Positions 15,645-64,000 of a stretch of 64,000 nucleotides of DNA are shown here, piece by piece. Made by a program: the position numbers and the translations under genes. Position 1 is the stretch's first letter; each line of letters starts with the position of its first letter. The notes beneath the pieces were generated by a model. The model ran no database searches. It worked only from the letters and a program-made list of their open reading frames with translations, and was not told where the DNA came from. Source of the DNA: Candidatus Nomurabacteria bacterium (GTDB lineage: Bacteria > Patescibacteriota > Minisyncoccia > Phycocordibacterales > UBA9973); NCBI GenBank assembly GCA_943359485.1, contig CALRHR010000002.1, positions 24,992-88,991 on the forward strand, written 5' to 3'.

Positions 15645-16361
15645 ATGGAAGATCCAAATACTTTAGTAAAGAAGGTTGTTGAACCAGTTGAACCAACTGG
15701 AGAAAAATCTCCAGAAATATTAGCACTAGAAGAAAGAATATCAAAATTAGAAATGGAAAAATCTGTGCTTGAAGAAGCCCACGCAGGGCTAGTTGAACAA
15801 GTTGAAACATTGAGCAAGCTGGCTTACCTTGATTTATTAACAGGGTTAAAAAGCAGGCTCGCTTTTGACAATGAAATAAAAATATATTTTGATCGAATTT
15901 ATAAAGAAAGTCACATACCTGAACAACGCAAAGAGGGGATGGAGAGTAATGAAAGTTTGGTTTTTGTTATTTTTGATATAGATAAGTTTAAGACAGTTAA
16001 TGATACTCTTGGACATCAAGCAGGAGATGTTGTGCTTAGGAAGGTAGCCAAGCAAATTAAGGGCTTTACTAGAGGTACTGACATCGTAGCTAGATGGGGA
16101 GGAGAAGAAATCGTGGTGGCTTTCATTGGTATGACCCCGAAAGAGGCTGAAGTAAAAACTGATTTTATTCGAAAACGAATAGCAAAGTTGGAGTTTGACG
16201 AATATCCAGACCTTAGGGTTACAATAAGCGCTGGGTTGGCTCACTCAGTTGATTTTAAAAATTCTAAAGACCTTTTTAAGGCTGCTGACGACGCACTATA
16301 TCTTTCAAAAGATGGTGGTCGCGATAAAGTGACAGTCCACAAACCAACAGAAATTAAATAA
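15645..16361 (+). CDS. GGDEF-domain protein (putative diguanylate cyclase) with an N-terminal coiled coil
   Basis: LLTGLKSRLAF...FDIDKFKTVNDTLGHQAGD...RWGGEEIVVAF. The signature reads GGEEI (GGDEF/GGEEF with F replaced by I). Confidence 0.75.
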   Translation: MEDPNTLVKKVVEPVEPTGEKSPEILALEERISKLEMEKSVLEEAHAGLVEQVETLSKLAYLDLLTGLKSRLAFDNEIKIYFDRIYKESHIPEQRKEGMESNESLVFVIFDIDKFKTVNDTLGHQAGDVVLRKVAKQIKGFTRGTDIVARWGGEEIVVAFIGMTPKEAEVKTDFIRKRIAKLEFDEYPDLRVTISAGLAHSVDFKNSKDLFKAADDALYLSKDGGRDKVTVHKPTEIK

Positions 16362-16420: not shown

Positions 16421-16489
16421 GTGAGCGTAGTTCAGTTTGCCTCGCCAACCACCGCCTGAGCGGGGCGAGGCGGGGTGAAGTAGAACGCT
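16421..16489 (+). pseudogene. 5' fragment of a tRNA-Ile-like gene (acceptor and D-arm) interrupted by a 44-nt GC-rich hairpin insert
   Basis: gtgagcgtagttcagt and tagaacgct match positions 1-16 and 19-27 of the intact tRNA downstream (15/16 identity). The insert ttgcctcgcc...ggcgaggcggggtgaag contains a perfect 8-bp stem gcctcgcc/ggcgaggc. No anticodon or T arm follows. Confidence 0.4.
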
Positions 16490-16513
16490 ATAGTGATTGT
16501 GTTTATAAGATTT

Positions 16514-16585
16514 GCGAGCGTAGTTCAGTGGTAGAACGCTGTCCTGATAAGACAGAGGTCGAAGGTCCGATTCCTTCCGCTCGCA
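16514..16585 (+). tRNA. tRNA-Ile (anticodon GAU)
   Basis: Cloverleaf folded by hand: acceptor gcgagcg/cgctcgc, D-stem gttc/gaac, anticodon stem ctgtc/gacag with loop ctGATaa, T-arm gaagg-tccgatt-ccttc, discriminator A. No encoded CCA. Confidence 0.8.
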
Positions 16586-16592
16586 CAAGGTT

Positions 16593-19500
16593 CTAGTCTC
16601 CTTTTTTGTTTAGATTTCGATATAAAATAGAATAATCCAAAGAATTCACAGTGCCGTCTTTATTTATGTCGTATAGTGGAATATTTTTATTCCAATTTTG
16701 AAAGATGATAGAAGAATCTATGGTGTCGATAACACTATCATTGTTGAAATCTCCGGCGGTGAGTTGTCCATAATCAATTTCCGAAGTTTGATTCAAATCA
16801 ACACCACGAATTATTTTTGGTAAAAATCCTGGCACAACTATGCGGATATCTACCACAGTTGAGGAATTAGAAATACTAGGAGTAGCTTGTCCAGAAGAAT
16901 CAGGGGAAATATTTATTTCTGAAAGTTTAGTGCTTTTACTATAAACCTCAATCTTGCCCGGAATGTTTTTTAAATTAGTTCCTTCTAAACTTAACTTTAT
17001 AGATTTTATTTTGGTAGTAGCTTGTGGTGCGCTCTGGGATGGGGTAGGTGTCGGAGTTGGTACTGGTACTGGGGTCGGTGTGGGTATTGGAGCTGGTACA
17101 GGTGTGGGTGTAGGTGCAGGAGTTGGAATAGGGGTGGGAGCTGGCACAGGTGCTGGGGCAGGAGCTGGTGCAGGTACAGGGGTGGGTGTCGGAGCTGGCA
17201 CAGGTGCTGGGGTGACTACTGGATTTCCAATATAATATTTAAAATCTACTGGCACATATGATGTGCGCGAAATTCCAGTAATGCTGTATCCGCTGCCATT
17301 AAAATACACACCTTTGTTTACAGTGGCTTCAGATTTAGTATTTAAGATTGTGTTGCCGTTGTTGTGCCACTTGTCACTGTCTGTAGTTTCTTGGCTTACT
17401 ATGTAATAAGTAGTATTAGCCAAAAGTCCGAGAGGAGAAGCGAGGTCAGTATATGCAAATTGGCCAGCAGTTTTTCCTGCAGTAGATAATTTTACGGAAC
17501 CTAAGTCCGCATTGTCAGAAGCACGAACTATTTTTATTGTATGCGCCTGATTATTTCCAGATACAATATATCGGCCAAGTGCAGTGATGGTGATAGCTTG
17601 GTTGCCTGTCGTCATGGAAAATCCTACCCAGCCCGTATAGTCATTGCGCAAGATGTCTAAAGAAGAGATTGAAGTTACAAAAGCACCTGGCGAAGTCACG
17701 AGGGGGGAAGGTGATGGTGAAGGTGATGGCTGTGGGTTAGCTACTGTAGTCGGTACTGGTGCCGAAACTGGGGCCGGCGTAGGTGCCACAGCACCGCCAG
17801 TAACATTTATATTACTGCTTACGGCGTTGCCATTTGTAGAAAAAGTATTACCGGAACCAGTTATACCAGAAAATGTGGAACCGCCTGTACCATAAATACC
17901 AAAGGACGCATTTCCTGAAAAATTGTTTCCAGAAATTATTACATTTTGTACTTGAGTAGGAGTATCCCAAAAAGTGATTCCGTCACGACTGTGACCGCTA
18001 AAAATATTATTACTAATATTTACAGTGCTTAGGTTGGCATTTCCACCAAAGACTATTCCTGCATACTGAGGTAGGGGATTGGTGCTCGACATAGTGTTAC
18101 CACTTATAGTTACATTTTGCCCGCCATTGTTGAAGTAAATACCACCAGAGAGATTTGAACTTTTATTATTTCGGATTATATTATTGGAAATTGTAGAGTT
18201 GCGCAAAATTTCAGAAGAATTTGTATCTTCGTTTACTACATAGATACCACTCTGGGTGTTTTCCTCAGCAGTATTTCCTGTGATGGTCACATTGCGTGCA
18301 CCATAATTCAGTGTGAGCTGTAAGCCATGGCAGTCGTTACGGTTGGTAGTATTTCCTGAGTACAATGCAGTACTTGATGGATTGTAATAACCATCCATCA
18401 AGAGTTTTATTCCCGCGCACCCAGTGTTGTTGCTGACATTATTTAGAACTTTAACAGTGCCAGAAGCTTGAACGACTATACCAGAGTGTCCTGTTTTATA
18501 AACATGGTTGTTTTCCACTGTGATATTTTTTTCTATCGCGGATTGCCACCAGTTGCCGAGCCACATACCTCGCATTACGCGTAAATTTGGCACTGGCACA
18601 TTCGAAGTATCTCTGTCGATGGTGATATTTTGGTAAGTATTGCCGGTGTTACCAGATGCTTGAAATACAGCTGAGGCTTGACTATCAGGACCACACTGCA
18701 TATTCATGTTGCGAATATTTAAATTTTCGAAAGTTGTATTTGTGTTGTTTGTGGCCCCAAATGCTGCGGTGCAAAAATTGTTGTTGCCATCAACATTTAG
18801 ATTTTTTATTACACAGTTTGTGCAGCTGCGGACATCAAATAAAATTCCACCTGTTATGCCGTTGCTGGCCGTGCCGACACCTGTAATTCTAAAACCACCT
18901 CCGTTTATGCCTTGGACAGTGATGCCAGTTTTCCCGTTTAGGCTAACAGTGCTTCCTATATCTGCCACACAATCAAAATTTATAGTTCCATTGTCAGCTA
19001 CTGCTCCAAAGGCTTGAGTAATAGCCGCCGCTGCATCTCCAGCACCACAAGCTCCATAGTCACTAATGCTTACGTTTGTGGCTACACCTTTTACAATTCC
19101 GTTGATCGAGGAGTTCATTTTCAGTTTTGTCTTCGGACCTATAAGACCATCCGCCACCAAGCCGTGGTTCTTTTGCCATGTTTTAATAACGTTGATAGTC
19201 TTGGGTCCAAGTACGCCGTCGATCACTAGGCCGAGGTTTAAAACTTGGTTCAGAAATTTCTGCAATTCTTTCACTGCTTCACCTCTACTTCCGTTCTTTA
19301 AAGTTACAGCGCCAAAGTTGTACGCAGTTTTGGTTTCAGCTTTTGGTAATGCATAAGTAGTTGCATTATTTTTTGTAGTGCTCACAGGTGAGTATGTGGA
19401 AACTTTCTTACTTCCACCGCCTCCACCACCCCCTCCGCCACCACTTGAACTACTACTATTTGCATTTTGAACGATTCCAATAATATTGTATTCAGCAGAA

Positions 19501-20015
19501 CTCACAGAAGATAAAACGTCTGCACCATTTGAGGCTATGTTCGTATCTGACGTGCTTCCAGACATAAAATCAAAATACAAATTTGTTTTTCCAATATTTT
19601 TGGGTAAAAAAGTTATGGTGGCCAAGACGCCGTTTCCATTGTAAACACCACTACCAGGGGCTACTTGTGCAAAACTAATTCTTCCGTTGGTAGAGTCTGC
19701 AGAATTTACCACAGTGTTTGACATCAAGCTGCCTGGAGAGATTTGTATTCCGGGTGCACCTCCATCCGCATCTACTACCTCTAAAAAAGATGGATTGTAA
19801 TTTAAATACAAGATGTCTACGCCCTCAACACTCGCGTCTTGTGTGTCGAGAAAGATGCTAACCGTAAAGTTGGAGTTCTGAGTTACATTTTGGGAAGAAG
19901 GAGAAAGGTACAGCGTGGCTGCCTCAGTGTTCGTAGCAAAACATAAAAGCATAAGGCCAAACAAGAATACGAGTAATTTGTCTTTTGAGTTTGATTCTTT
20001 TTTCATTTTATACAC
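16593..20015 (-). CDS. Giant secreted multidomain surface protein: signal peptide, cohesin-like domain, Gly10 linker, PG-binding domain, parallel beta-helix (pectate-lyase/NosD-like), PT-linkers, C-terminal dockerin-like repeats
   Basis: 1140 aa with an N-terminal signal peptide ([19 protein letters not shown]). A cohesin-like segment ([14 protein letters not shown]...[19 protein letters not shown]) is followed by a poly-Gly linker and then PG_binding_1 ([15 protein letters not shown]...DGVLGPKT...ADGLIGPKT). Beta-helix repeats have NxN/GxxxN ladders ([24 protein letters not shown]). Long (P[AT]P)n linkers precede a C-terminal dockerin pattern [12 protein letters not shown]...[12 protein letters not shown]. 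Confidence 0.7.
17017..17222 (-). repeat. Low-complexity coding repeat encoding the (PxP[AT])n Pro-Thr linker of the giant protein
   Basis: The repeated ggtgc(t/a)gg(g/t)g(c/t)agg units translate on the minus strand to [20 protein letters not shown]... Confidence 0.7.
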
Positions 20016-20105: not shown

Positions 20106-20423
20106 ATGAAAAAAGTAGCTAAAAAATCAACTGGAAAATATGTAACAGAAAAAACCTTCAATGCTTTTGAAGATAGATTTGATAGTAGTTCGAGAGCTAT
20201 CGCGCAATCATTTGCTGACAATGCTGAAGTTACTTCAAGAATGCTTGTAGAACTTAAAAATATAAATGCCGCTACAACTCTTATTCTAAAAGAAATTACA
20301 GCTATACATGAAGATGGAAAAAAGTTTAGAGAAAATATTTCCAGTTTAAATAGTGATGGTTTATCTTGCGATAGAAGAATTAATAATCTAACTATTCGAG
20401 TGGAAAAGCTGGAGTCTAAGTAA
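20106..20423 (+). CDS. Small hypothetical coiled-coil protein
   Basis: 105-aa ORF, Lys/Glu-rich and predicted helical, with no known motif. It lies inside the putative island. Confidence 0.4.
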   Translation: MKKVAKKSTGKYVTEKTFNAFEDRFDSSSRAIAQSFADNAEVTSRMLVELKNINAATTLILKEITAIHEDGKKFRENISSLNSDGLSCDRRINNLTIRVEKLESK

Positions 20424-20425
20424 AT

Positions 20426-20454
20426 TTGCATGCCTTTCTTCTTTATATTATTAT
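20426..20454 (+). promoter_or_regulatory. Promoter-like element copy 1 (TTGCAT, 17-bp spacer, TATTAT) upstream of hicB-like gene
   Basis: A ~40-bp block aatttgcat(g/c)(c/t)ctttcttctttatattattat is shared with 22628-22668 upstream of atpI. The -35/-10 hexamers have an exact 17-bp spacing. Confidence 0.45.
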
Positions 20455-20465
20455 GATATAAGCAT

Positions 20466-20720
20466 ATGATATCAAAATTTATTGAACAAAAATTAAGAAT
20501 GGCAAAATACAAACTACTTACAGACGGTACTTTTTTTGCTGAGGTACCTTCGATTAGGGGTGTTTGGGCAAATGCTAAAACACTAGAAAAATACAGAGAA
20601 GAACTCGCAGAAGTTCTGGAAGACTGGTTATTTTTAAATATTAGAGAAAAAAGAAGTATCCCGGGCTTTCCAGCTAAAACAAATTTCAAGGTACTTTTCA
20701 AGCCAAGGGCTTATGCTTAA
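20466..20720 (+). CDS. HicB-like antitoxin (UPF0150/DUF1902 fold)
   Basis: KYKLLTDGTFFAEVPSIRGVWANAKTLEKYREELAEVLEDWL fits the HicB N-domain pattern Y..DG...AEVP...G....G.T.EEA. Confidence 0.5.
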   Translation: MISKFIEQKLRMAKYKLLTDGTFFAEVPSIRGVWANAKTLEKYREELAEVLEDWLFLNIREKRSIPGFPAKTNFKVLFKPRAYA

Positions 20721-20746
20721 AAACATCTCGTTCAAGAATCTTGTAA

Positions 20747-20926
20747 TTAAGTTTAAAGACCTTGGTTTTTTCTGGTCCATATGCTGGCGGTAGACATTTA
20801 TTTATGGAGAAAAGAAATTTAAAAATTTATATCCCTAATCCGCAAAAAGGTGATATTCCCAAATCTCTAGTTGCTGAGATTTTGCGCCAGGCTGGGATTT
20901 CGAAAGATGACTGGAATGATGCATAG
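20747..20926 (+). pseudogene. Degenerate HicA-like toxin remnant
   Basis: The frame from the upstream stop translates ...FSGPYAGGRHLFMEKRNLKIYIPNPQKGDIPKSLVAEILRQAGISKDDWNDA*. The C-terminus matches the HicA ...TVP.H..KDL..GTL..ILKQAGL end. The N-terminus is degenerate, and the only ATG (20804) would give a 40-aa product. Confidence 0.35.
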
Positions 20927-21011
20927 TCAAAGAGTCTAACCTGTCCCGTAGCGATCTCTACCGTGTACTGAGCTTGCTCTAGTACTGCGGTTCGCTGTTT
21001 TGTACCGGGAC

Positions 21012-21028
21012 TCCTTCCGCTCGCACAA
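21012..21028 (+). repeat. 17-bp direct repeat of the tRNA-Ile 3' end (attR-like)
   Basis: tccttccgctcgcacaa is identical to 16572-16588 (T-stem 3' half, acceptor 3' strand and 3 nt beyond). Two further upstream matches (ga) extend it to 20 positions with one mismatch. Confidence 0.6.
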
Positions 21029-21076: not shown

Positions 21077-22588
21077 ATGATTTTAGAAACTTTAAACAAT
21101 CCAGAAAAATCTCCCAAACATCCTGCAGTGACGAGGCTTCTTGAGGCGGCTGAGCATTATGTTTCGCCAAAATATCTTAATAAAAATAGAAACCCATGGA
21201 GGAAGAAAGATGATAGTGTTCTCGAATTCATACCGGAGCAATATGACACCGCAGATCCTTTTAATCACAAGTATGACGGAAAAGTTTGGGTTCCTAAGGG
21301 AAACCCGGATTCTGTTATGCCTGATGCTCTAGATTTGAACAATTTAAAATTTATTTCTAAGGAAAAAGCTCAAGAGGCACTGGATCGTTTAGAAGAGTTT
21401 ACTCGTGATATTAAATCCAGCGAGCAGTTGTCACTAGTAATTGGGACTGGTGGTACTATTGCTATGTCACTTCAAAATGGAGAGCTGATTCCAAAACTAG
21501 ACACTGATGCAATCCTGGAATTTGCTGGACAGCGCTTGAGAAACCAATTCAGATTAACAGGCTTGGAATTTCCCAGAGCCATGGATAGTTCTCAGATGTG
21601 TTCTGATTTTACAATGGATATATTAATAGCGATTTCAGCCATTTGGGATAAAGCTTCAGATAATCTAAAGAAACACTTCGCTGGATTTTTAGTTACGCAC
21701 GGTACTGATACTTTAGCATGGAGCGCTGCTGATATGGCAATGGCACTAGGTCCTAACCCGCCTTTTAGTGTTGCTTTTGTCGGTGCCCAACAAACAACAG
21801 AAGCTACTTTTTCTGATGTTGCATCAAATGTAGCTTTCTCTCTTAAATCACTTTCTAGACTAAAAGAGAATAATATAAATACCGTTATGATTGGAATTGG
21901 GGGTACTGCCGGAGCTGCATACAGCGGTTTGGGTGCCATAAAGGTTAGTGATGTGGATGCTAAAGCCTTTGACACTCCCGGACACAAAGTTTTAATTAAT
22001 TGGTCAGATTTTGGTAAAAGTGGAACCAGTAATGAATTTTTACAAAAATCACCTGCAAAAAAAAGAGAAGATTCCTTCAGACCCTTAATTTTTAGTGGTC
22101 CCAGACCATTTTTCCGCATATCGCCAGACCAAGGAAGCAATCCTAATGCAGAATACCAACGTGTTTTAAATTCACCCGAACCTGTAATTATTTTAGAGTC
22201 ATTTGGTACTGGTACTGCCCATAGAGATATTGTTGAAGCTGTGATGACCGCAGCTAAAGAATCGGGAAAAGTAGTTTTTCTGTCCAGCCCTTTGGCTACC
22301 GGTAGTTTAGATCATAAATATGCAGATGCATTATATGCGGTAGAAAGGGGAGCTATCCCCGTAGAAATGATGCCGGCTGCGTTAGCGGCAAAGATTCATC
22401 TAGCCGTTACTATGATTGGTGTTAAAGATAAAGAACGTTTTGTTGATTTTGTAAAAAATCGAAATTATGCAGGAGAACAGTTCGCGGAATGGAAACCCAA
22501 AAATCGGGGAACATCTCCCGGTAATCCTTTCTTTAGAATTGGAGCACCAAGAGGTTTCTCTGATGTTGCATGGACGGGAACAATGTAG
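21077..22588 (+). CDS. L-asparaginase-family protein (asparaginase/glutaminase fold)
   Basis: The VIGTGGTIAMS threonine motif is the asparaginase N-terminal catalytic signature. 503 aa with an unusual ~110-aa N-terminal extension. Confidence 0.55.
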   Translation: MILETLNNPEKSPKHPAVTRLLEAAEHYVSPKYLNKNRNPWRKKDDSVLEFIPEQYDTADPFNHKYDGKVWVPKGNPDSVMPDALDLNNLKFISKEKAQEALDRLEEFTRDIKSSEQLSLVIGTGGTIAMSLQNGELIPKLDTDAILEFAGQRLRNQFRLTGLEFPRAMDSSQMCSDFTMDILIAISAIWDKASDNLKKHFAGFLVTHGTDTLAWSAADMAMALGPNPPFSVAFVGAQQTTEATFSDVASNVAFSLKSLSRLKENNINTVMIGIGGTAGAAYSGLGAIKVSDVDAKAFDTPGHKVLINWSDFGKSGTSNEFLQKSPAKKREDSFRPLIFSGPRPFFRISPDQGSNPNAEYQRVLNSPEPVIILESFGTGTAHRDIVEAVMTAAKESGKVVFLSSPLATGSLDHKYADALYAVERGAIPVEMMPAALAAKIHLAVTMIGVKDKERFVDFVKNRNYAGEQFAEWKPKNRGTSPGNPFFRIGAPRGFSDVAWTGTM

Positions 22589-22630
22589 GTTGGTCAAGCC
22601 GCATAAACTTTACAAGAAAGTTACTATAAT

Positions 22631-22659
22631 TTGCATCTCTTTCTTCTTTATATTATTAT
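22631..22659 (+). promoter_or_regulatory. Promoter-like element copy 2 (TTGCAT, 17-bp spacer, TATTAT) for the atp operon
   Basis: Same block as 20426-20454. It is followed by the leader aagcccccAGGAGacATG with an SD-like AGGAG before atpI. Confidence 0.5.
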
Positions 22660-22680
22660 AGTAATAAGCCCCCAGGAGAC

Positions 22681-24787: not shown

Positions 24788-25195
24788 ATGGGAATTTTAA
24801 CAAACAACGAAATAGCAGAAAATATTTTTTCTTTAATAAAAAATACAAATCAAAAAGGTTTAGTTGAAATTATAGAAAAAGTTGTATTTTTAGACAGACA
24901 GCGTTTGGCTGGGCAGACTAAAATCATACTCTCTAGTATAAAAGATATTTTATATAAACAAAACAAAATTTTAGAAGTAGATCTCATTAGTGCTATTCTT
25001 TTAGAAAATAGTCAGAAAGAGAAGTTGTCTTTAATTTTAAAAAATAGTTTCGATGCTAATGAAATTATTTTTAATGAAAAAATCGACAAGGATGTATTGG
25101 GAGGATTTAAGATAGAAGTGAAAGATGAAGTCATAGACCTGACTCTTAGAAAAAAAATTTTAAAATTACAAGAACATTTAATAAATAAAATATGA
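24788..25195 (+). CDS. atpH: F0F1 ATP synthase subunit delta (OSCP), short form
   Basis: 135 aa, in the position between atpF and atpA. C-terminal ...[24 protein letters not shown] resembles the delta C-terminus. Confidence 0.6.
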
Positions 25196-26694
25196 GTCAC
25201 GATCAGATTATAGAAAATTTAAAGAAAGACATGCAAAGTTTTACACTAGAAAATAAAGTAGAACATGTTGGTAAAGTTTTGGAACTTTTTGATGGCATTG
25301 CCAAAGTTTCTGGGCTTTCTAATGTTAAGTCTTCCGAAATGGTTACTTTCTCTGGAGGAGAAGTCGGTGTGGTTTTGAACCTCGAAACAGATGTAGTTGG
25401 TATCATTATATTGGGTGACTATTCCAAAATTAAAGAAGGTGATGAAGTAAAGGCGACAGGGAGAATTTTAGAAATTCCTGTTTCAGACAATATTTTAGGA
25501 CGAGTGGTAGATAGTTTGGGTGTTCCGATTGACGGTAAGGGTGTCATTAAAAGTGAGAAAAGCTATCCTATTGAAAAAGTTGCTCCGGGGGTTGTGACCA
25601 GACAAAGCGTCAGTGAACCAGTTGCGACTGGGATAAAAGTTATTGATGCTATCATTCCCGTTGGTCGCGGTCAGCGTGAGCTTATAATAGGTGACAGACA
25701 AACAGGCAAGACTGCTCTCGCTATAGATGCTATTTTAAATCAAAAAGGTCAGAACATGATTTGTGTTTATGTTTCTATTGGGCAAAAAGATTCTAAGCTT
25801 CGTAAACTAGAAGCTCGTCTTGAAGAAGGCGGGGCGATGAAATACACAGTTATCGTATCTGCAGGTGCTTCCGAGCCTGCTTCTATGTCATACATTGCTC
25901 CGTATGCTGGAGTTTCTATTGCAGAATATTTTATGGATCAAGGAAAAGATGTACTTATTATTTATGATGATCTTTCTAAACACGCTGTCGCTTATCGAGA
26001 AATTTCTTTACTACTTCGTCGTCCACCTGGGCGTGAAGCTTATCCGGGAGATGTATTTTATTTACACTCGAGACTTCTTGAGCGCGCTTGCAGGAGGAAT
26101 GAAAAATACGGAGGAGGGTCTATTACTGCATTTCCAATTATTGAAACACAAGCTGGAGATATCTCAGCTTATATTCCCACAAATGTTATTTCTATTACTG
26201 ATGGGCAGATTTTCTTAGAGACTGACCTTTTTTATAAAGGTATACGCCCTGCGGTAAATGTCGGAAGTTCTGTGTCTCGCGTTGGTTCAGCTGCGCAGAT
26301 AAAAGCTATGAAAAAAGTAGCTGGAACACTCAAACTCGACCTTGCGCAGTATCGTGAACTTGAAGCATTTTCTCAGTTCGGTTCAGATCTGGATGATGCC
26401 ACAAAGAAACAATTAGAAAGAGGCAAAAGGTCAGTTGAAGTTTTAAAGCAACTACAGTATGCCCCAGTAAAAACAGAACACCAAGTTGTTGTTTTCTACG
26501 CTTTAACGAAAGGTTTTATGGATGATGTCGCTATTGATAAAATAAAGACTTTTGAAAGTGAGCTGATAGACTACAGTGAAAACAATGCTAAAACTTTTTA
26601 TAAAGAAATTCGTGAGTCAAAAATGTGGACAGAAAAAGGCGAAGAGGAATTGAAGAAAATTATTACAGAATTTAAAACAAGTTTTGTGAAGTAA
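25192..26694 (+). CDS. atpA: F0F1 ATP synthase subunit alpha
   Basis: P-loop GDRQTGKTA and the alpha-type signature ...[26 protein letters not shown]. Confidence 0.95.
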
Positions 26695-26771: not shown

Positions 26772-27011
26772 GTGGTTATGAAAAAATCAATTCACAATTA
26801 TACAGCCGTATTTGAAAGAAATGAAAACAATGGCTATACTGTTACGGTTCCTTCGCTTCCTGGTCTTGTTACCGAAGGGAGGAACTTAGATGATGCTCGT
26901 AAAATGGCAACCGAAGCTATCGAGTGCTATTTAGCAGGCCTTAAAGTAGACAAGAAGCAACTTCCAGTCGAGGGAGATATTGCCAGCATCAGGCTTTCGG
27001 TATTTGCATAA
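26772..27011 (+). CDS. hicB: HicB-family antitoxin
   Basis: YTAVFERNENNGYTVTVPSLPGLVTEGRNLDDARKMATEAIECYLAG is the canonical HicB/UPF0150 N-domain. Confidence 0.8.
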   Translation: MVMKKSIHNYTAVFERNENNGYTVTVPSLPGLVTEGRNLDDARKMATEAIECYLAGLKVDKKQLPVEGDIASIRLSVFA

Positions 27012-27012
27012 T

Positions 27013-27243
27013 ATGCCTCGACTCAAGCGTCTTACCGCCAAGGATGTATGTAAAATTCTACACAGTTCTGGATTCTTTGTGCATCATACTCATGGTAGCC
27101 ATGTGCACTTACGACATCCTGAAAAATTGCATTTGCGTGTGGTCGTGCCATATCACAACCGAATTCTTGCACCAAAAACATTGAAATCAATCATTGTTCA
27201 AGCAGAATTATCCAGGGAGGAAATTAAGAATTTTTTTAATTAA
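27013..27243 (+). CDS. hicA: HicA-family mRNA interferase toxin
   Basis: MPRLKRLTAKDVCKILHSSGFFVHHTHGSHVHLRHPEKLHLRVVVPYHNRILAPKTLKSIIVQAEL is the YcfA/HicA fold with the conserved His. It starts 2 nt after the hicB stop. Confidence 0.8.
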   Translation: MPRLKRLTAKDVCKILHSSGFFVHHTHGSHVHLRHPEKLHLRVVVPYHNRILAPKTLKSIIVQAELSREEIKNFFN

Positions 27244-27268: not shown

Positions 27269-29616
<2,348 letters not shown>

Positions 29617-35997: not shown

Positions 35998-38448
35998 GTG
36001 AACAAAAAACAAAATTTTGCAAAAATGCCTAAAAAAAGTCAAATTAGCGTGGCAATATTGTGTGGCGGACCTTCACTCGAACGGGGAATCTCGTTAAATT
36101 CTGCACGCAGTGTTCTTGACCATCTAGGTAGTCAGGGGGTCGAGATTGTACCCATCTATTTTAATGAAAAAAGAACTCCCTATAAAATTTCAAATGCGCA
36201 ACTTTATTCAAACACCCCGTCTGATTTTGATTTTAAGTTAAAAAAAACTGGCAGAGAACTTTCGCAGTCCGCCCTCGTTAAAATTTTAAAAAGTGTAACA
36301 ATTGTTTTCCCTTGCATGCACGGCACATTTGGCGAGGATGGAGAGATTCAAAGTTTTTTAGAAAAACACGGTATTCCTTTTATTGGTTCAGGATCGCAAG
36401 CATGCAAGACGGCTTTTGATAAATTTAGAGCGAACGAATACATTCGCTCGCTTGGGTTTTATGCTCCGCAATCCATTGTACTCAAGATCACCGACACAGA
36501 AAAAGAGATTAGAAAAAAAGTTTATAGTTTTTGGAAAAACGAAAAGATAAAATGCGCTATAGTCAAGCCAGCTTCCGGGGGTTCAAGTATTGGTGTATTT
36601 TCTACAGGAAACATAGATGATAGTATAGACCGAATAAAAAGCCTATTCAGTAAACGCAGAGATACACGCGTGGTAGTGGAGCGTTTTGCGGAAGGAAAAG
36701 AGTTTACGGTAATTATTTTACAAAACAGACTTAATATGCCGGTGGCTATTTTACCCACTGAACAGGAAATGGATTATAGCAAACATCAATTCTTTGATTT
36801 CCGTAAAAAATACTTACCGACCCGTCAGGTTACCTATCATTGTCCACCTCGATTTCCAAACGAAATAATTGAAAAAATACAGATACAGGCCGAACAGCTT
36901 TTTTCTGTTTTTGGCATGACGGACTTTGCTCGTTTTGACGGATTTCTGATGCCCGATGGGAATATTTGGTTTTCAGATTTTAATCCAATTTCTGGCATGG
37001 AGCAGAACAGTTTTCTTTTTCAACAAGCATCTCGTATCGGCATGACCCATCAAGATATTTTGCGTTTTATAGTAAACAACGCCTGTTTACGCCGGGGTAT
37101 TCCGGTGGTATTAGAAAATTTATTTTTACACGAAAATTTAGACAAGAAAAGAAAACCACTGGCTGTGCTTTTCGGTGGGGAAACAGCGGAAAAGCAAGTC
37201 TCGCTCATGAGTGGCACAAACACCTGGCTTAAATTGCGTGGATCTCAAGTATATAAACCATTTCCATATCTTTTAGCAAAAAAAGATGAAATTTGGGAAC
37301 TTCCGTATTCTTACATTCTCAATCACACAGTTGAAGAAATAATAGAAAATGCAGAAAAAGCCCCAAGGGATATAAAAAGATTATTATTTTTACTTGAAAA
37401 GGTGAAAATGAGATTATTCTTAAAAGAATCTGATGCCACAGAAGACTTTTTTATGCCTAGAAAATACACCTTAAATAAAATCCTAGCAAAGCACCCCTTT
37501 ATATTCTTAGCCTTGCATGGTGGAATTGGTGAAGACGGGACAATACAGCGAATTTTGGAAAAAAATAAGATAAAATACAACGGCTCCGACAGCTCAACTT
37601 CCAAACTCTGTATGGACAAATGGTTAACTAATGAAATAATATCGCAGGCGAATTTAAGTGGAGTAAAAACTGCTCCGCATGTACTTCTGAAGGTAGAAGA
37701 TTTTTCTAAACTTTCTATGAGTAAAACACAAGAGGATTACTGGCAAATGCTTTTAGGAACACTCGGAGGAAAAACAGTTATTGCTAAACCTCGAGGTGAT
37801 GGATGTTCGGCTGGAGTGGTGCGACTTTTTAATAAAAAAGATTTAGCTACATATATTTGGTTTATAAAAAATAAATATTCTGTCGCTAAACCCGGTACTT
37901 TTACTAATCAAAATAATTTAATTCAAATGCCAGAAGGTGAGGTCATGGATATTATTTTTGAATCATTTATTGAAACAGATAAATTAAAAATCCATGGAGA
38001 TAAGATTGTGCACATTAGGAAGAGCGGTTTTCTGGAAATGACTGTGGGTGTAGTAGAAGAAAAAAATTCTGGCAATGGCAAAGGTCGCATAAAAGCATTA
38101 TCTCCCTCCATTACTGTGGCTGAAGATACAATACTGTCTGTTGAAGAAAAGTTTCAAGGAGGTACTGGTGTAAATATTACTCCGCCACCAGCTCACATTA
38201 TCTCGCGAAAAAACCTTAATAAAGTTAAAAAGTCTATTGAACTTGTGGCGGAAAAACTTAGAATTCGTGGTTACGCCAGAATTGATATTTTTACCCAAGT
38301 CAAAACTGGGAATATTATTGTAATTGAAATAAATACTCTACCGGCGCTTACTCCGTCAACCGTTATTTATCATCAGGCGTTAGCAGAAAAAGAACCAATT
38401 TTCCCTAAACAATTTATGGAATTAGTTGTAGAAAACAAAGAATCATAA
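35998..38448 (+). CDS. ddl: Tandem-duplicated D-alanine--D-alanine ligase (two Ddl-like ATP-grasp modules fused)
   Basis: Module 1: ISVAILCGGPSLERGISLNSARSV ... KPASGGSSIGVF. Module 2 (from about residue 390): LAVLFGGETAEKQVSLMSGTN ... KPRGDGCSAGVVRLF. Alanine racemase follows immediately. Confidence 0.65.
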   Translation: MNKKQNFAKMPKKSQISVAILCGGPSLERGISLNSARSVLDHLGSQGVEIVPIYFNEKRTPYKISNAQLYSNTPSDFDFKLKKTGRELSQSALVKILKSVTIVFPCMHGTFGEDGEIQSFLEKHGIPFIGSGSQACKTAFDKFRANEYIRSLGFYAPQSIVLKITDTEKEIRKKVYSFWKNEKIKCAIVKPASGGSSIGVFSTGNIDDSIDRIKSLFSKRRDTRVVVERFAEGKEFTVIILQNRLNMPVAILPTEQEMDYSKHQFFDFRKKYLPTRQVTYHCPPRFPNEIIEKIQIQAEQLFSVFGMTDFARFDGFLMPDGNIWFSDFNPISGMEQNSFLFQQASRIGMTHQDILRFIVNNACLRRGIPVVLENLFLHENLDKKRKPLAVLFGGETAEKQVSLMSGTNTWLKLRGSQVYKPFPYLLAKKDEIWELPYSYILNHTVEEIIENAEKAPRDIKRLLFLLEKVKMRLFLKESDATEDFFMPRKYTLNKILAKHPFIFLALHGGIGEDGTIQRILEKNKIKYNGSDSSTSKLCMDKWLTNEIISQANLSGVKTAPHVLLKVEDFSKLSMSKTQEDYWQMLLGTLGGKTVIAKPRGDGCSAGVVRLFNKKDLATYIWFIKNKYSVAKPGTFTNQNNLIQMPEGEVMDIIFESFIETDKLKIHGDKIVHIRKSGFLEMTVGVVEEKNSGNGKGRIKALSPSITVAEDTILSVEEKFQGGTGVNITPPPAHIISRKNLNKVKKSIELVAEKLRIRGYARIDIFTQVKTGNIIVIEINTLPALTPSTVIYHQALAEKEPIFPKQFMELVVENKES

Positions 38449-56103: not shown

Positions 56104-57600
56104 ATGTATAGTGAAACCAAGATGAAGAAAAATACCAACTCTAAAAACCTAAAAAACTTAGGGCAAGGATTAACATTTGACGATGTGCTTTTGGTGCCAA
56201 ATCATAGTGAAGTTTTACCGCGCAATGTCATTACAAAAACCCGCCTGACGAAAAATATAGCTCTCCATATTCCTCTGATGTCCGCGGCAATGGACACAGT
56301 GACTGAGGGAGCTATGGCCATAGCCATGGCAGAGCAAGGTGGTATTGGCATCATTCATAAAAATTTATCGATCGAAGATCAGGCTAAGGAAGTCGAACGA
56401 GTAAAGCGTTATGAATCTGGCCGAATATCAAATCCAATTACTCTCACGGTGGGGCAGACGGTGGGAGATGTTTTGAAAATAAAAGCCAAATATCATTTTG
56501 GAGGATTCCCTGTTTTAGATAAGAGTGGTAAGTTGGTGGGCATTATTACGAATCGCGATCTTCGATTTCAAAAAAATAACTCTACTTTGGTAGAGAAAAT
56601 TATGACAATCAAGCTTGTTACCGGCGGACCACACACAACCATTGAAGAAGCCAATGACTTATTTCAAAAATACGGTATTGAAAAACTTCCACTCGTAGAT
56701 AAGATGGGTAAATTAGTCGGGCTGATTACCTATCGTGATACGGAAAAAAGCAAAGAACACCCAAACGCTACCAAGGACAAAGAAGGAAGGCTTTGCGTAG
56801 GGGCGGCAGTAGGCGCGGGCAGTGATGTTCTCTCTCAAGTTGAAGCCCTTGTTAAAGCTGGGATAGACATTATATGTGTAGACACAGCTCATGGACATTC
56901 CAAGGGTGTGATTGAAACAGTAAAAAAAATTCGTAAAGCTTATCCAAAACTCGACATTATTGCTGGAAATATCGCTACCGGCGAAGCCGCGCTCGCGCTT
57001 ATAACTGCTGGAGCGAATGCGGTAAAAGTCGGCATTGGTCCTGGTTCGATTTGTACCACGCGGGTTGTCTCAGGCGTCGGAGTACCACAACTCTCTGCTG
57101 TTTCTTCTGTGTATGAAGTTTGTAAGAAATTAAATATTCCAGTTATTGCTGACGGCGGGATAAAACATAGCGGAGATGTGGTCAAGGCTCTCGCTTTTGG
57201 CGCCGATGTAGTAATGGGTGGCAGTATGTTTGCTGGGACAGATGAATCTCCGGGCGACATAATTACACTAAACGACCAAAAATTTAAAAAATATCGAGGC
57301 ATGGGTAGTCTCGGCGCGATGCAGAGAGGTTCCAAGGATCGTTATTTTCAAGAAGATCAGTATGATCTGACCAAGCTCGTACCCGAAGGTGTTTCTGGGC
57401 ATGTGTCTTATAAAGGCCCAGTATCTGGTATAATTCATCAATACATTGGTGGACTTCGCGCAGGCATGGGCTATCTGGGAGCCGAAAACATTCAAACTAT
57501 GCGCAACGCTTCTTTTTATACTATTACTTCGGCTGGCCTATCAGAAAGTCATATACATGATGTTTTTATGGTAAAGTCTGCGCCAAATTACAAGAAATAG
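56104..57600 (+). CDS. guaB: IMP dehydrogenase
   Basis: [14 protein letters not shown], a CBS pair, the catalytic [11 protein letters not shown] loop, and GGIKHSGD. Confidence 0.92.
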
Positions 57601-57634
57601 GTTTTAGTTGCTAGCTTCTAGGTTCTAGAAAAAA

Positions 57635-59065
57635 ATGAATAAAAATAAAAATTTAAAAGTTACCCCTTTAATTGGTCTACAATGGGGAGATGAAGGCAAG
57701 GGTAAGGGCGTAGCGCGCATCGCGTCGAGTTTATCGAAAAATGATTTAGTCACTAGATTCCAGGGTGGGAATAACGCAGGGCATACTATTTTTCACAAAG
57801 GCAAATCATATGTGTTTCAATTAATTCCTTCGGGTGTGTTCGGCAAGGTCAAGATTCACCTCGGCGCTGGAATGGTTATAAATCCCTACGCCTTTTTAAA
57901 AGAAACGGAAAGAATTCCGGAAGAAATTTCATTCTTATCACGGCTTTCTGTCTCACCTCATGCTGTACTGGTAATGCCGACACATCTATTTCTAGATTCT
58001 ATTTCTGAAAAGTCTAAAGGCAAGAAAAAAATTGGCTCGACCGGAAAAGGAATCTCGCCTTCATATACTGACCTAGTTATGCGTCGGGCTCTGCGCATTG
58101 GGGATATTTCACAACGAGACTTCAAAAATAGATATAAAATACTCCGCGATGAACATAAGAAAATTCTAAAAAATATTTTTCAGTATAAAGTTTCCGACAA
58201 GGAATTAAGAGAGAGTGAAAGAAATTTTTGGCAGGGAATAAAATTCATCCGCAGTCTTATAATTAAAAACTCAGCAGAACTAGTGGCAGAAACACTTGCA
58301 AAAAATGGGAAAGTTATCGCCGAAGGTGCGCAGGGGACTTTGCATGATATCAGATTCGGCAATTATCCATTTGTGACTTCTTCACATACCTTTGCCGGAG
58401 GGGTAGCTACTGGCTTGGGAATCCCGCCAGCTCTTATTGGCGGTTCAATTGGAATTTTAAAAGCATACTCGACGCGAGTTGGAGAAGGACCTTTCCCCAC
58501 AGAACTTGGGGGTGAAAAATCAGCGGTCTGGTGTAGAGATAAAAAAGTTATTGATGAAAAAGAGAAATTTCCACATCCCCAAATAGGCAGTATGCTAAAT
58601 AGTAAAGATGAATTCATACAGGGCGTGGCCCTCCGTAAGGCGGGATCAGAGATTGGCGCGGTCACAGGAAGACTGCGTCGCACTGGTTGGCTGGATATTC
58701 CTTTAGTTAAATTTGCTATGAAGATAAATAATACCACCGAACTTGTTCTGACCAAGCTGGATGTTTTTAACAACTTTAAAAAAATAAAAGTTTGTACGCA
58801 TTACATCATAGACGGTAAAGCAACTACAAAAATTCCATTTGATCTTTCGCGAGAAAAAATAAAGTGTATCTATAAGTCGTTTCCTATTTGGAAAGGGAAG
58901 TTGTCTGACTATCATGGTAAACCCACCCGACTGAACAGTCGTTCGGGCGAGCTTCCCAAAGAAGCCATAAATTACATAAAATATTTAGAAAAAACTCTCG
59001 GCGCCAAAATTATCTATGTCTGCACTGGTCCCGAAGAGCATGAGTGTATCGAACGGTATTGGTAG
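57635..59065 (+). CDS. purA: Adenylosuccinate synthetase
   Basis: GLQWGDEGKGK (P-loop), GGNNAGHT, TGKGISPSY, and GTTGRRCGWLD-like VTGRLRRTGWLD. Confidence 0.92.
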   Translation: MNKNKNLKVTPLIGLQWGDEGKGKGVARIASSLSKNDLVTRFQGGNNAGHTIFHKGKSYVFQLIPSGVFGKVKIHLGAGMVINPYAFLKETERIPEEISFLSRLSVSPHAVLVMPTHLFLDSISEKSKGKKKIGSTGKGISPSYTDLVMRRALRIGDISQRDFKNRYKILRDEHKKILKNIFQYKVSDKELRESERNFWQGIKFIRSLIIKNSAELVAETLAKNGKVIAEGAQGTLHDIRFGNYPFVTSSHTFAGGVATGLGIPPALIGGSIGILKAYSTRVGEGPFPTELGGEKSAVWCRDKKVIDEKEKFPHPQIGSMLNSKDEFIQGVALRKAGSEIGAVTGRLRRTGWLDIPLVKFAMKINNTTELVLTKLDVFNNFKKIKVCTHYIIDGKATTKIPFDLSREKIKCIYKSFPIWKGKLSDYHGKPTRLNSRSGELPKEAINYIKYLEKTLGAKIIYVCTGPEEHECIERYW

Positions 59066-59128
59066 AGATTAAAAGTTGAACCTAGCTCTGTGATGGTAAA
59101 ATACTATGAATTAGTATAATATACCTAT

Positions 59129-63756: not shown

Positions 63757-63758
63757 TT

Positions 63759-64000
63759 ATGAGAAAAAAACCAATACATTCGCATAGCTCAGCATCTTCG
63801 GCTAAAAAGCCTCGAATTATAATCATGTCCGGATACGGACTCAATTGCGAAGAGGAGACCAAATTTGCTTTTGAAACTGCGGGCGGGGCCGCGGACATTG
63901 TGCATATTAACGACTTAATCAAGAAACCGAAAATACTCTCAAGCTACCAGATATTGGTTTTTCCTGGTGGATTTTCTTATGGCGATGACACAGGCAGTGG
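63759..64000 (+). CDS. purQ: Phosphoribosylformylglycinamidine synthase glutamine amidotransferase subunit PurQ (5' part; continues beyond the window)
   Basis: MRKKPIHS...PRIIIMSGYGLNCEEETKFAFETAGG...ILVFPGGFSYGDD is the class I GATase N-terminus of PurQ. Confidence 0.8.
   Translation, partial: MRKKPIHSHSSASSAKKPRIIIMSGYGLNCEEETKFAFETAGGAADIVHINDLIKKPKILSSYQILVFPGGFSYGDDTGS

Follow-up and report, generated by a model that had tools for sequence, protein, structure and literature searches.

The open reading frame at positions 16593..20015 (minus strand) of the window, i.e. the whole 64-kb stretch of DNA analysed here, appears to encode a wall-tethered, dockable and polysaccharide-directed surface protein, which would be a fusion of an anchor and a cargo unit, belong to a cellulosome-like system and be carried on an insert at a tRNA-Ile gene; we hold this explanation as a whole with slightly better than even confidence. 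From the N-terminus, the chain is composed of a signal peptide, a cohesin, a Gly10 linker, a PG_binding_1 module and a 436-aa right-handed beta-helix. After a Pro/Thr linker comes a DUF4082-like beta-sandwich, and another such linker leads to a small beta-rich module and a type I dockerin. A preliminary description made from the sequence had proposed this domain order, and its four module assignments (cohesin, PG_binding_1, beta-helix and dockerin) all scored above the Pfam cut-offs, while the translation directly shows the Gly10 run together with the DGVLGPKT / DGLIGPKT pair and both Pro/Thr linkers. Since the cohesin and the dockerin were both supported by profile HMMs, the HMM failure that the description had named as speaking against it did not occur. 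One chain joins a predicted wall anchor, a cohesin, a dockerin and a polysaccharide-type beta-helix. The frame comprises 1140 aa counted from GTG, and the true start is likely to be the ATG at 20006, which gives 1137 aa, the same as the database copy P0001, which begins at this ATG three codons inside the GTG.

All features of the target lie on the minus strand. A putative signal peptide (residues 1-32, 19920..20015) was read by eye from a Lys-rich N-region, a hydrophobic stretch and a TEA|A cleavage-type site. We take the product, with slightly better than even confidence, to be a protein of several modules that a Patescibacteria-type bacterium exports by Sec to its cell surface. The cohesin (residues 33-180, 19476..19919) was defined by Pfam, AlphaFold2 and Foldseek. 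The Pfam match (PF00963; 32.2 bits against a cut-off of 24.1, E 1.4e-7) surfaces only when the isolated N-terminal 159 aa (residues 33-191) are scanned and is absent from the whole-protein scan. The preliminary description had suggested structure prediction as a check, and the AlphaFold2 model of residues 32-188 (pLDDT 82, pTM 0.78, 12 strands) bears the cohesin out: its best 50 Foldseek matches in the PDB are without exception cohesins, types I to III being represented, at TM about 0.7 (up to 0.73) and E down to 4e-7. The cohesin fold is a nine-stranded jelly-roll beta-sandwich, and the predicted model conforms to it. Among the 15 cohesins nearest to that of the target, 13 are "terminal/anchor" by their position in the related operons described below, and by sequence the target cohesin falls into this class.

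The linker that follows (residues 181-230, 19326..19475) reads in the sequence as Ser5-Gly10 and then a Ser/Thr/Lys-rich part; a comparable Gly-run linker precedes PG_binding_1 in P0017. The PG_binding_1 module (residues 231-302, 19110..19325) carries the DGVLGPKT / DGLIGPKT pair, and its Pfam match (PF01471; 45.7 bits against a cut-off of 23) covers residues 244-297 and profile positions 1-54 of 57. A tether to the wall of a partner cell had been suggested for the protein. For PG_binding_1, we favour the bacterium's own wall as the more likely attachment, because modules 70-75% identical to it, mostly C-terminal, end many Paceibacterota surface proteins and because the window and contig encode peptidoglycan synthesis (Ddl, alanine racemase, a MurA-family enzyme of the EPSP-synthase fold, a Mur ligase and PBPs). 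The module could equally bind the wall of a host.

The right-handed parallel beta-helix (residues 310-745, 17781..19088) was delimited by Pfam, the family alignment and an AlphaFold2 model with pLDDT >85 across about 430 residues. Beta_helix (49.7-62.7 bits against a cut-off of 25.9) and NosD (24.5-29.6 bits, counted among the matches above cut-off) were the only Pfam families found at E<=1, and the pectate-lyase families PF00544 and PF12708, the latter once called Pectate_lyase_3, did not match the target; PF12708 matches seven of 37 members of the beta-helix family, the target not being among them. The Asn ladder (N526, N555, N581, N612, N640, N670 and N697, at a spacing of 26-31) is invariant in the 37 family members, and 166 PDB matches of the model were found by Foldseek at E<=1e-3, with RbmB and AlgE4 leading. 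By its modelled fold, the domain is placed in the pectin-lyase-like right-handed beta-helix superfamily. The family profile recovered AlgE6 (1e-17), AlgE4 (4e-16) and RbmB (1e-11), and also GH87 and GH110. The catalytic motif of AlgE is reportedly YG(F/I)DPH(D/E) (attributed to Rozeboom et al. 2008). This motif is missing from the target, which was therefore rejected as an AlgE-type mannuronan C5-epimerase; the family profile leaves the motif stretch, residues 116-181 of AlgE4, unaligned, and the family has R-G-x-W-x-G-N ... E and H-G-x-Q instead. The A-modules of AlgE4 and AlgE6 and the Vibrio cholerae RbmB lyase (PMC12993940) are the best profile and structural relatives, and they share an N-terminal cap and C-terminal coils with the target beta-helix. 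In the target alignment, no position was assigned to the catalytic Lys227 of RbmB. As the nearest solved relatives are AlgE and RbmB and the AlgE motif is missing, the earlier term "pectate-lyase-type" holds for the fold, as supported by the PDB matches and the Asn ladder, and does not extend to the pectate-lyase family. Some of the nearest folds are adhesins with no catalytic activity, e.g. the beta-helix protein PfbA, which is also found by the family profile. Given such neighbours, the missing AlgE motif and the absence of a match to any CAZy-type Pfam family, catalysis by the beta-helix is putative.

Linker 1 (residues 746-784, 17664..17780), rich in Pro/Thr/Ser/Ala and with pLDDT <50, leads to the DUF4082-like beta-sandwich (residues 785-932, 17220..17663), which is followed by the Pro/Thr/Ala/Val-rich linker 2 (residues 933-1010, 16986..17219), recognised from its sequence. 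A second beta-rich domain had been noticed here before; it is indeed present and is described as DUF4082-like by homology to copies in P0002 and P0037, the score of the target itself lying under the cut-off (PF13313; 18.3 bits against 28.4) and the AlphaFold2 model being poor in this region. An HMM of the target and P0002 copies recovers those of P0037, one of which scores 34.1 bits in Pfam. Weak CBM36 and lectin matches were also obtained, and the domain is probably a carbohydrate-binding-type module. The small beta-rich module (residues 1011-1086, 16758..16985) has no Pfam match; it adjoins the dockerin and is conserved with it in related proteins. The two together are 35% identical to residues 548-665 of P0004, and in many of the operon proteins a home-made HMM of the pair finds a stretch of about 100-110 aa.

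The type I dockerin (residues 1087-1136, 16608..16757) was identified by two Ca-loop motifs and by Pfam (Dockerin_1, PF00404; 36.4-39.8 bits against a cut-off of 22.9), and nearly all matches of the segment to PDB sequences were dockerin modules or dockerin-bearing enzymes. The 12-residue Ca-binding loops lie at 1089-1100 and 1116-1127, each with a 10-residue stretch after it, and in sequence terms this is the duplicated loop-then-helix pattern of a type I dockerin. Of the two DxNxDGxVNxxD loops reported before, the second is exact, whereas the first has Ser for Gly6 and Asp for Asn9. A generic EF-hand at the C-terminus was considered and rejected, EF-hand_1 reaching just 13.3 bits against a cut-off of 25.4. 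The 64-kb window holds no further dockerin loops beyond these two.

Cohesins related to that of the target were found in 47 loci; of the 36 closest, 34 carry labels of Patescibacteria-group taxa. In 35 of these 36 loci, two to five cohesin or dockerin genes are adjacent and co-directional, and separate cohesin scaffolds and dockerin partners occur together, whereas for the target, neither the window nor the part of its 102-kb contig that was covered (about 84 kb) showed a partner cohesin or dockerin gene. The operon set consists of a dockerin protein, a small cohesin, a cohesin-dockerin protein and a cohesin-PG_binding_1 protein, and the modules were confirmed with Pfam on samples. A cohesin-dockerin gene is present in 21 of the 36 loci and a cohesin-PG_binding_1 gene in 14-15, so that a cohesin followed by PG_binding_1 as a wall-anchoring module is seen in the target and in these 14-15 genes. 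The operon cohesins cluster by operon position across genomes (adaptor with adaptor in 23 of 25 cases, terminal with terminal in 26 of 34). The two halves of the target also occur on their own. The cohesin-PG_binding_1 half was found in L015, L017 and L019 (about 340 aa); the cargo half is represented by P0059 (beta-helix, Big_7, DUF4082-like domain and dockerin) and, as beta-helix plus dockerin, by P0031 and P0038. P0002 (71% identical) and P0025 (59%) have the beta-helix of the target without cohesin or dockerin. Among the 87 family proteins and 47 loci sampled, the target alone joins anchor and cargo in one chain. It would be a fusion of an anchor (signal peptide, cohesin and PG_binding_1) with a cargo (beta-helix, DUF4082 and dockerin), a view that shares the slightly better than even confidence of the whole explanation. 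Because these units are separate in its relatives, the target appears to be part of a system that assembles surface proteins through cohesins and dockerins in the manner of a cellulosome, and the gene arrangement points to such an assembly kit, with a conserved operon in many Patescibacteria. Our literature search found no paper describing this cohesin-dockerin operon or its link to PG_binding_1.

Clostridial scaffoldins include SdbA and OlpB of C. thermocellum, which have SLH modules, and the ScaA-ScaB-ScaC system of A. cellulolyticus. Like these, the Patescibacteria operons are three-tiered (a wall-fixed cohesin, a cohesin-dockerin adaptor and dockerin-ended proteins), and in its fold the target cohesin resembles cohesins of both type I and type II, with a TM of about 0.7. 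They differ in the wall anchor, which is PG_binding_1 instead of SLH or sortase, in having one or two cohesins per protein instead of many, and in an identity to clostridial cohesins of just 12-18%; the target further merges the scaffold tiers into a single chain, unlike the clostridial proteins. Surveys of non-cellulosomal cohesin and dockerin proteins are said to predate CPR genomes. Such proteins (Peer et al. 2009, as cited in PMC10066038), including one of Archaeoglobus fulgidus with both modules (as cited in PMC4611034), are similar to the present case in that the modules occur in non-cellulolytic organisms, at times in one protein, with partners not known.

In the mechanism proposed here, the signal peptide would be cut off and PG_binding_1 would hold the chain non-covalently on the bacterium's own peptidoglycan, with the N-terminal cohesin close to the wall as a putative socket for a dockerin-bearing protein. 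The remaining chain would reach outward via the Pro/Thr linkers, and the beta-helix and DUF4082 sandwich would bind, and possibly cleave, a polysaccharide, e.g. a host envelope glycan or a matrix polymer. At the tip, the small beta module and the Ca-dependent dockerin may plug into a cohesin of another surface protein, of another target copy or of the target itself. Self-assembly and host attachment, both proposed in the preliminary description, are putative. The dockerin consensus does not separate "adaptor" from "cargo" proteins, so the cohesin preferred by the target dockerin is not predictable. A wider reading, which we put forward tentatively and with clearly less confidence, is that Patescibacteria, and distantly some Anaerolineae, share a conserved peptidoglycan-fixed scaffold that shows host-contact molecules, the target being a fused plug-in on integrase-less tRNA-Ile cassettes with a common hairpin-forming right end; as an equally tentative part of it, its three tiers would be an anchor made of cohesin and PG_binding_1, an adaptor made of cohesin and dockerin, and adhesins or enzymes that have a dockerin at the tip. 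Little is understood of how ultra-small episymbiotic bacteria form their surface and hold their hosts; in the epibiont Southlakia, the only member that is open to genetics, a protein with a dockerin domain is essential (PMC10633639). The parts supplied by the target are a predicted cohesin/dockerin pair, a module predicted to tether it to peptidoglycan and a beta-helix of a rare family with conserved candidate ligand residues, and as many Patescibacteria species have the same parts in a conserved operon, surface assembly becomes a question for binding assays.

The chain may instead be a self-polymerising adhesin or fibre, joined head to tail by cohesin and dockerin into a wall-bound network or stalk in which the beta-helix is a rigid, non-catalytic spacer or lectin-like element, an alternative that we regard as unlikely and yet the strongest of those considered. 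One end of the chain holds the cohesin and the other the dockerin, with long linkers between them, the dockerin consensus common to all operon classes suggests promiscuity, no glycoside-hydrolase or lyase family was matched, and the resemblance to PfbA fits a non-catalytic role. A precedent, for the preferred explanation as well, is Ruminococcus bromii Amy4, in which a catalytic module is combined with both a cohesin and a dockerin and whose own cohesin binds its own dockerin in experiments (PMC4611034); this bacterium also has separate cohesin-bearing scaffold proteins (PMC4611034). Like the target, Amy4 is one secreted chain that has a carbohydrate-directed module and a cohesin and ends in a dockerin, a layout that allows multimers and docking onto a wall-anchored cohesin, and this potential would be common to both. 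Amy4 is, in contrast, a GH13 amylase, while the beta-helix of the target is not characterised; it has no wall module of its own and is anchored via the sortase-linked Sca2, where the target has PG_binding_1 in the same chain; and its self-binding has been demonstrated, while that of the target is putative. Against polymerisation, the positional classes of cohesins conserved across genomes suggest differentiated partners. In the beta-helix family, R482, W485, N488, E495 and Q566 are invariant or at least 90% conserved (H563 is the consensus at <90%), within the motifs given above, and such conservation of R482, W485, E495 and Q566 is what a site for a defined ligand, or an active site, typically shows. 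Family members also bear Malectin, CBM60, Laminin_G_3 and Ig-like modules, CBM-type modules being found likewise in secreted enzymes.

These modules and the profile matches to AlgE6, AlgE4, RbmB, GH87 and GH110 speak for a link to polysaccharides, and a wall-tethered, polysaccharide-directed protein is preferred to a fibre. A nutritional complex similar to the cellulosome, which degrades environmental plant or algal polymers as food with no host link, is a less probable proposal still, and we give it a low chance. The cohesin, dockerin, pectin-lyase-like beta-helix and CBM-like module follow the classical cellulosomal grammar, and cohesin/dockerin expression in a CPR bacterium has been interpreted in this way (PMC9123182). 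However, the neighbouring genes are housekeeping genes, with no glycoside-hydrolase, lyase or sugar-uptake genes alongside, the dockerin proteins sampled in related operons carry fn3 and Ig-like modules where clostridial systems have cellulases, and the beta-helix family is rare (85 matches in 1.84 billion representatives) and lacks a named CAZy-type Pfam match. Slightly less probable again is an autolysin-like enzyme with which the bacterium remodels its wall or its secondary wall polymers; PG_binding_1 would then target the substrate, with cohesin and dockerin as vestiges. PG_binding_1 is frequent in wall hydrolases, an SLT-type transglycosylase gene lies 3 kb off, and weak NCBIfam matches to SleB, an L,D-transpeptidase and a muramidase were obtained; these matches, however, span PG_binding_1 alone and are far under the cut-off (36 against 236 bits), no beta-helix muramidase or amidase family was matched, and the target cohesin and dockerin, being 44-60% identical to the operon copies, are not decayed.

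The target gene lies in a repeat-bounded segment at tRNA-Ile(GAT) (16514..16586, plus strand), whose 3' end is 6 nt from the target stop codon. The left 17-nt direct repeat TCCTTCCGCTCGCACAA (16572..16588, plus strand) equals the tRNA 3' end, and its exact right copy (21012..21028, plus strand) closes a segment of 4.44 kb; two copies of this 17-mer occur in the window against 0.01 expected by chance. Besides the target, the segment contains only plus-strand genes, namely a 105-aa ORF with no assigned function, oriented divergently from the target (20106..20423), a UPF0150 / HicB-like antitoxin gene (20466..20720; Pfam 80.7 bits) and a frameshifted hicA toxin remnant (20717..20927), which scores 28.7 bits for HicA_toxin against a cut-off of 27 when its two frames are joined. 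We consider it very improbable that the fusion arose through an error of assembly or gene calling, or that the gene is a pseudogene decaying on a dead island: the architecture is unique in the sample and the adjacent hicA is broken, but the identical 1137-aa product is found on four contigs in ENA, NCBI and Logan, one an independent Logan assembly, the frame is open over 3.4 kb without a break, and every module scores as intact.

The segment is absent from the syntenic relatives L062 and L067, where the empty site has the gene order RF1, RRM protein, tRNA-Ile (100% nt), atpI at +56 and atpB, and this comparison shows such surface modules to belong to the flexible genome. The putative island of the preliminary description is supported by the tRNA-end repeat and the empty sites, and not by base composition. 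The GC3 of the target (0.332) is ordinary within the window range of 0.16-0.40, and its raised GC is due to codon position 2 (0.47), i.e. to amino-acid content. No integrase was found in the segment or among the Pfam-annotated genes of the window, nor does the segment have an excisionase, and given the ordinary GC3 its recent mobility stays putative. That the gene arrived on, or sits in, an integrase-less insert at the tRNA-Ile 3' end is again, within the whole explanation, a little more probable than the contrary. The segment resembles att-flanked tRNA islets and cis-mobilisable elements, which insert at tRNA 3' ends, have a repeat that rebuilds the tRNA end, carry toxin-antitoxin cargo, are absent from syntenic relatives and lack a recombinase of their own. 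Next to the right repeat lies a conserved, hairpin-forming sequence (20939..21011, plus strand) with no Rfam match. Positions 20939-21027 are 84% identical to the right end of L068, another repeat-bounded insert at the same tRNA, and this 89-nt right end is all that the two elements have in common.

The open reading frame on the reverse strand at 16593..20015 encodes 1140 aa from its GTG codon, as had been described, and gene callers place the start at an ATG three codons downstream, giving a product of 1137 aa (P0001). The anatomy of the preliminary description was correct, i.e., signal peptide, cohesin, Gly10 linker, PG_binding_1, beta-helix, a second beta-rich domain and a C-terminal dockerin, and the Gly10 run, the DGVLGPKT/DGLIGPKT pair and the two Pro/Thr linkers are all readable in the translation. 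The Pfam scan of the whole protein returned Beta_helix (49.7 bits), PG_binding_1 (45.7 bits), Dockerin_1 (36.4 bits) and NosD (24.5 bits), all above the curated cut-offs, and Cohesin was not among the matches; it scored 32.2 bits against a cut-off of 24.1 (E 1.4e-7) when the N-terminal piece was scanned alone. The protein was modelled as two domain-level pieces, and a whole-protein alignment built from fragments was dropped because the cohesin and dockerin fragments were misplaced in it. The top PDB sequence matches of the N-terminal piece were scaffoldin cohesins, at weak scores, and the AlphaFold2 model of residues 32-188, built from six related sequences, reached a pLDDT of 82 and a pTM of 0.78; its top 50 PDB matches in Foldseek were all cohesins, with TM values of about 0.7. 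The PDB matches of the C-terminal piece were nearly all dockerin modules or dockerin-bearing enzymes, and the generic EF-hand model scored far under its cut-off on this piece. These results thus uphold both the cohesin and the dockerin assignment. As for the two calcium-binding loops, the second fits the dockerin pattern described earlier, and the first carries Ser for Gly and Asp for Asn.

The beta-helix belongs to a rare family. When residues 305-750 were searched exhaustively against 1.84 billion representative proteins, only 85 relatives came up at E<=1e-3 and just six at E<=1e-30. Searching the PDB with the single beta-helix sequence gave leucine-rich-repeat noise only, and a profile of 37 family members was needed to obtain matches. 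In the 37-member alignment the seven Asn of the ladder, 26-31 residues apart, and part of the R-G-x-W-x-G-N motif (residues 482-488) are invariant, conservation reaches at least 90% at E495 and Q566, and position 563 has His as its consensus. Among solved structures the profile matches the mannuronan C5-epimerases AlgE6 (1e-17) and AlgE4 (4e-16). It also matches further alginate epimerases, the polysaccharide lyase RbmB, PfbA, which is an adhesin, and enzymes of GH87 and GH110. The AlphaFold2 model of the beta-helix has a pLDDT >85 across about 430 residues, and its best Foldseek matches were RbmB and AlgE4, then PfbA, phage tailspikes and polygalacturonases. The catalytic motif of AlgE is absent from the protein, the AlgE stretch that bears it is left unaligned by the family profile, and no pectate-lyase profile matches; the term pectate-lyase-type used previously is therefore correct at the level of the fold alone, and pectate lyase is too specific. 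Of RbmB, the family profile aligns only the N-terminal cap, which leaves the catalytic residues of that lyase (PMC12993940) outside the aligned part. The accessory modules of the family, which include Malectin, CBM60, Laminin_G_3, Ig-like and DUF4082 domains and in three cases a dockerin, correspond to the set found in secreted proteins directed at carbohydrates. With DUF4082 of Pfam, the second beta-rich domain (residues 785-932) reaches 18.3 bits, under the cut-off of 28.4; it is homologous to copies in the related proteins P0002 and P0037, one of which passes DUF4082 at 34.1 bits. For this DUF4082-like part the AlphaFold2 model is too unreliable (pLDDT 25-60) to serve for a fold search.

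The nearest relatives match parts of the protein only. P0002 is 71% identical across the beta-helix and DUF4082 region, carries two DUF4082-like copies, and is without cohesin, PG_binding_1 and dockerin; P0025 is a beta-helix alone, P0004 consists of two cohesins and one dockerin, and P0003 combines one cohesin with Ig-like and PKD modules and a pair of PG_binding_1. Modules 70-75% identical to the PG_binding_1 of the protein studied here, mostly C-terminal, occur in many large proteins that are otherwise unrelated to it, including ones labelled Paceibacterota or Pacebacteria. The anchor half, composed of signal peptide, cohesin and PG_binding_1 (about 340 aa), stands alone in three related loci (L015, L017 and L019), and the cargo half stands alone in P0059, which has a beta-helix, Big_7, DUF4082-like domain and dockerin, and in P0031 and P0038, with beta-helix and dockerin. 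Cohesin, PG_binding_1 and dockerin are found together in a single chain in none of the 87 proteins of the beta-helix family and in none of 47 loci with related cohesins; the fusion is unique within this sample. No other dockerin loop or cohesin occurs in the window, and neither was found in two stretches of the contig read beyond it.

The protein is of interest both for this fusion and for where its cohesin led, namely to a conserved, peptidoglycan-anchored cohesin-dockerin operon in Patescibacteria that is apparently undescribed. A four-sequence cohesin alignment, used in place of a six-sequence version that was too diverse, was scanned against species-representative genomes and gave the 47 loci. 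The 36 closest (L003-L038) share 43-55% identity and nearly all carry labels of Patescibacteria-group taxa, and the remainder are mainly Anaerolineae. All open reading frames of the loci were scored with home-made HMMs and samples were checked by Pfam. Two to five adjoining, co-directional cohesin or dockerin genes are present in 35 of the 36 closest loci, e.g., L014 (1927-7015), L036 (788-5134) and L011 (2350-5092). In the recurrent order a dockerin-ended protein comes first; next are a cohesin-only protein of small size (about 215 aa) and a cohesin(-cohesin)-fn3-dockerin protein, and the row closes with a terminal cohesin protein, which ends in one to three PG_binding_1 modules in 14-15 of the 36. 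Looser or more distant versions (L039-L049) were found in Anaerolineae and Thermoflexia. The cohesins group by operon position and not by genome (adaptor with adaptor 23/25, terminal with terminal 26/34, small with small 15/21), and the dockerins do so less sharply. The cohesin of the fusion protein falls into the terminal or anchor class (13 of 15 nearest neighbours). A call of its dockerin as adaptor-type or cargo-type was dropped, the class consensus sequences being indistinguishable; the dockerin fits a consensus common to all classes, so its preferred partner is not predictable. Our literature search found no description of the cohesin-dockerin operon or of its link to PG_binding_1, and only passing mentions, namely that cohesin and dockerin genes are expressed in a Shapirobacterales genome (PMC9123182) and that a dockerin-domain protein is essential in Southlakia (PMC10633639).

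What we observed is the modules and their order, their family ties, the operon setting found in relatives, and the insert; how the protein might work we infer as follows. It would be exported by the Sec pathway and tethered by PG_binding_1 to the cell's own wall, where its cohesin would form a wall-proximal socket. That the organism makes peptidoglycan is judged from its genes for Ddl, alanine racemase, a MurA-family enzyme, a Mur ligase and PBPs. The unit of beta-helix and DUF4082-like domain would project outward and bind, and possibly cleave, a polysaccharide by way of Arg, Trp, Glu, His and Gln residues that are conserved in the beta-helix. The partner of the distal dockerin may be a cohesin elsewhere in the same surface system, one on a second copy of the protein, or the one in its own molecule. 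Amy4 of R. bromii, which combines an enzyme with a cohesin and a dockerin and whose own cohesin binds its own dockerin (PMC4611034), is by analogy the best experimental precedent. A purely structural, self-polymerising adhesin is the likeliest of the alternatives. Part of a nutritional mini-cellulosome, or an autolysin on the cell's own wall, fits the data less well. An artefact also fits less well: the P0001 product is recorded on four contigs in ENA, NCBI and Logan (the longest, k141_2273450, has 102,483 bp), so the fused frame does not stem from a single assembly. The protein is best named a variant form of non-cellulosomal cohesin-dockerin protein, and host attachment or host-wall remodelling, as proposed for it previously, is a plausible candidate role.

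The gene lies among housekeeping genes (RF1, L31, L25, GatB and the ATP synthase operon, with purine synthesis further on), all on the opposite strand. Its stop codon is 6 nt from the 3' end of tRNA-Ile(GAT), and the final 17 nt of the tRNA region, TCCTTCCGCTCGCACAA, are repeated exactly at 21012-21028, so that the window holds two copies where 0.01 would be expected. The 4.44-kb segment bounded by this repeat contains the fusion gene, a 105-aa open reading frame, a UPF0150/HicB-like gene and a frameshifted hicA, and no integrase. Composition gives no island signal, as the GC3 of the gene (0.332) is inside the window range and its raised GC stems from codon position 2 (0.47). The predicted empty-site sequence is ...GATTCCTTCCGCTCGCACAAATTTGCAC.... 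The 3' half of this tRNA occurs in sixteen metagenome contigs, of which four are informative. In the long syntenic contigs L062 and L067 (RF1 80-84%, RRM protein 86% and atpB 72% identical in amino acids, tRNA 100% in nucleotides) the tRNA leads directly into atpI at +56, and the fusion gene is missing together with the hic genes, the asparaginase-like gene and, upstream, the GGDEF gene. These contigs and the repeat support the island suspected earlier. In the closest relative, L059, whose RRM protein is 92% identical, another open reading frame (172 aa) follows the tRNA, and L068 has a 736-bp segment with the same bounding repeat and a nucleotidyltransferase/HEPN-like pair inside. Because two of these contigs are empty and two carry other contents, the tRNA-Ile-atpI spacer is, on comparative grounds, an insertion hotspot, and the fusion gene occupies one member of a family of small inserts with bounding repeats. 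The 89-nt right end (20939-21027) is 84% identical to positions 697-783 of L068, in two different repeat-bounded inserts; its first 70 nt or so fold into a long hairpin in both copies (-30 and -34 kcal/mol) and are followed by the 17-nt repeat. This right end has no match in Rfam and may be the recombination site of an integrase-less cassette family.

Several minor features were noted around this site. In L056, L060, L063 and L065, from other lineages whose tRNA-Ile has the same 3' half, the core of the tRNA 3' end occurs a second time about 109 nt after the gene, which suggests further small insert scars. Directly upstream of the tRNA, at 16421-16492, is a partial copy of its 5' half (GTGAGCGTAGTTCAGT ... 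GTAGAACGCT), split by a roughly 40-nt hairpin rich in GC; this region is partly conserved in L059 (81% over 202 nt). A GGDEF diguanylate-cyclase gene (15645-16361) lies between the RRM-protein gene and tRNA-Ile; as it is absent from the equivalent position in L059, L062 and L067, it marks a second indel, across the tRNA from the first. Just beyond the right repeat is a 503-aa asparaginase-family gene (21077-22588), missing in L062 and L067; no relative of this gene turned up when JGI metagenomes were searched by pattern. A promoter-like sequence of 31 nt (TTGCAT ... TATATTATTAT) stands upstream of both hicB (20424-20454) and atpI (22629-22660) and is conserved at 93-94% in L059 (1126-1157).

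Elsewhere in the window, an intact hicB-hicA pair (26778-27243) sits inside the ATP synthase operon, between the genes of the alpha (25192-26694) and gamma (27269-28177) subunits. A long run of de novo purine biosynthesis genes, unusual in a reduced Patescibacteria genome, extends over 56104-64000 and continues on contig L051 up to 20875. It includes IMPDH, adenylosuccinate synthetase and PurL-type AIRS-domain (FGAM-synthase-like) genes, amidotransferase-, formyltransferase- and GARS-domain genes, AIRC, SAICAR-synthase and Lyase_1 family genes, and a 568-aa open reading frame (62050-63756) with no Pfam match. The D-Ala-D-Ala ligase gene at 35998-38448 is of double length (816 aa). It matches the N-domain and the C-domain twice each, as a tandem fusion would, and is followed by the alanine racemase gene.
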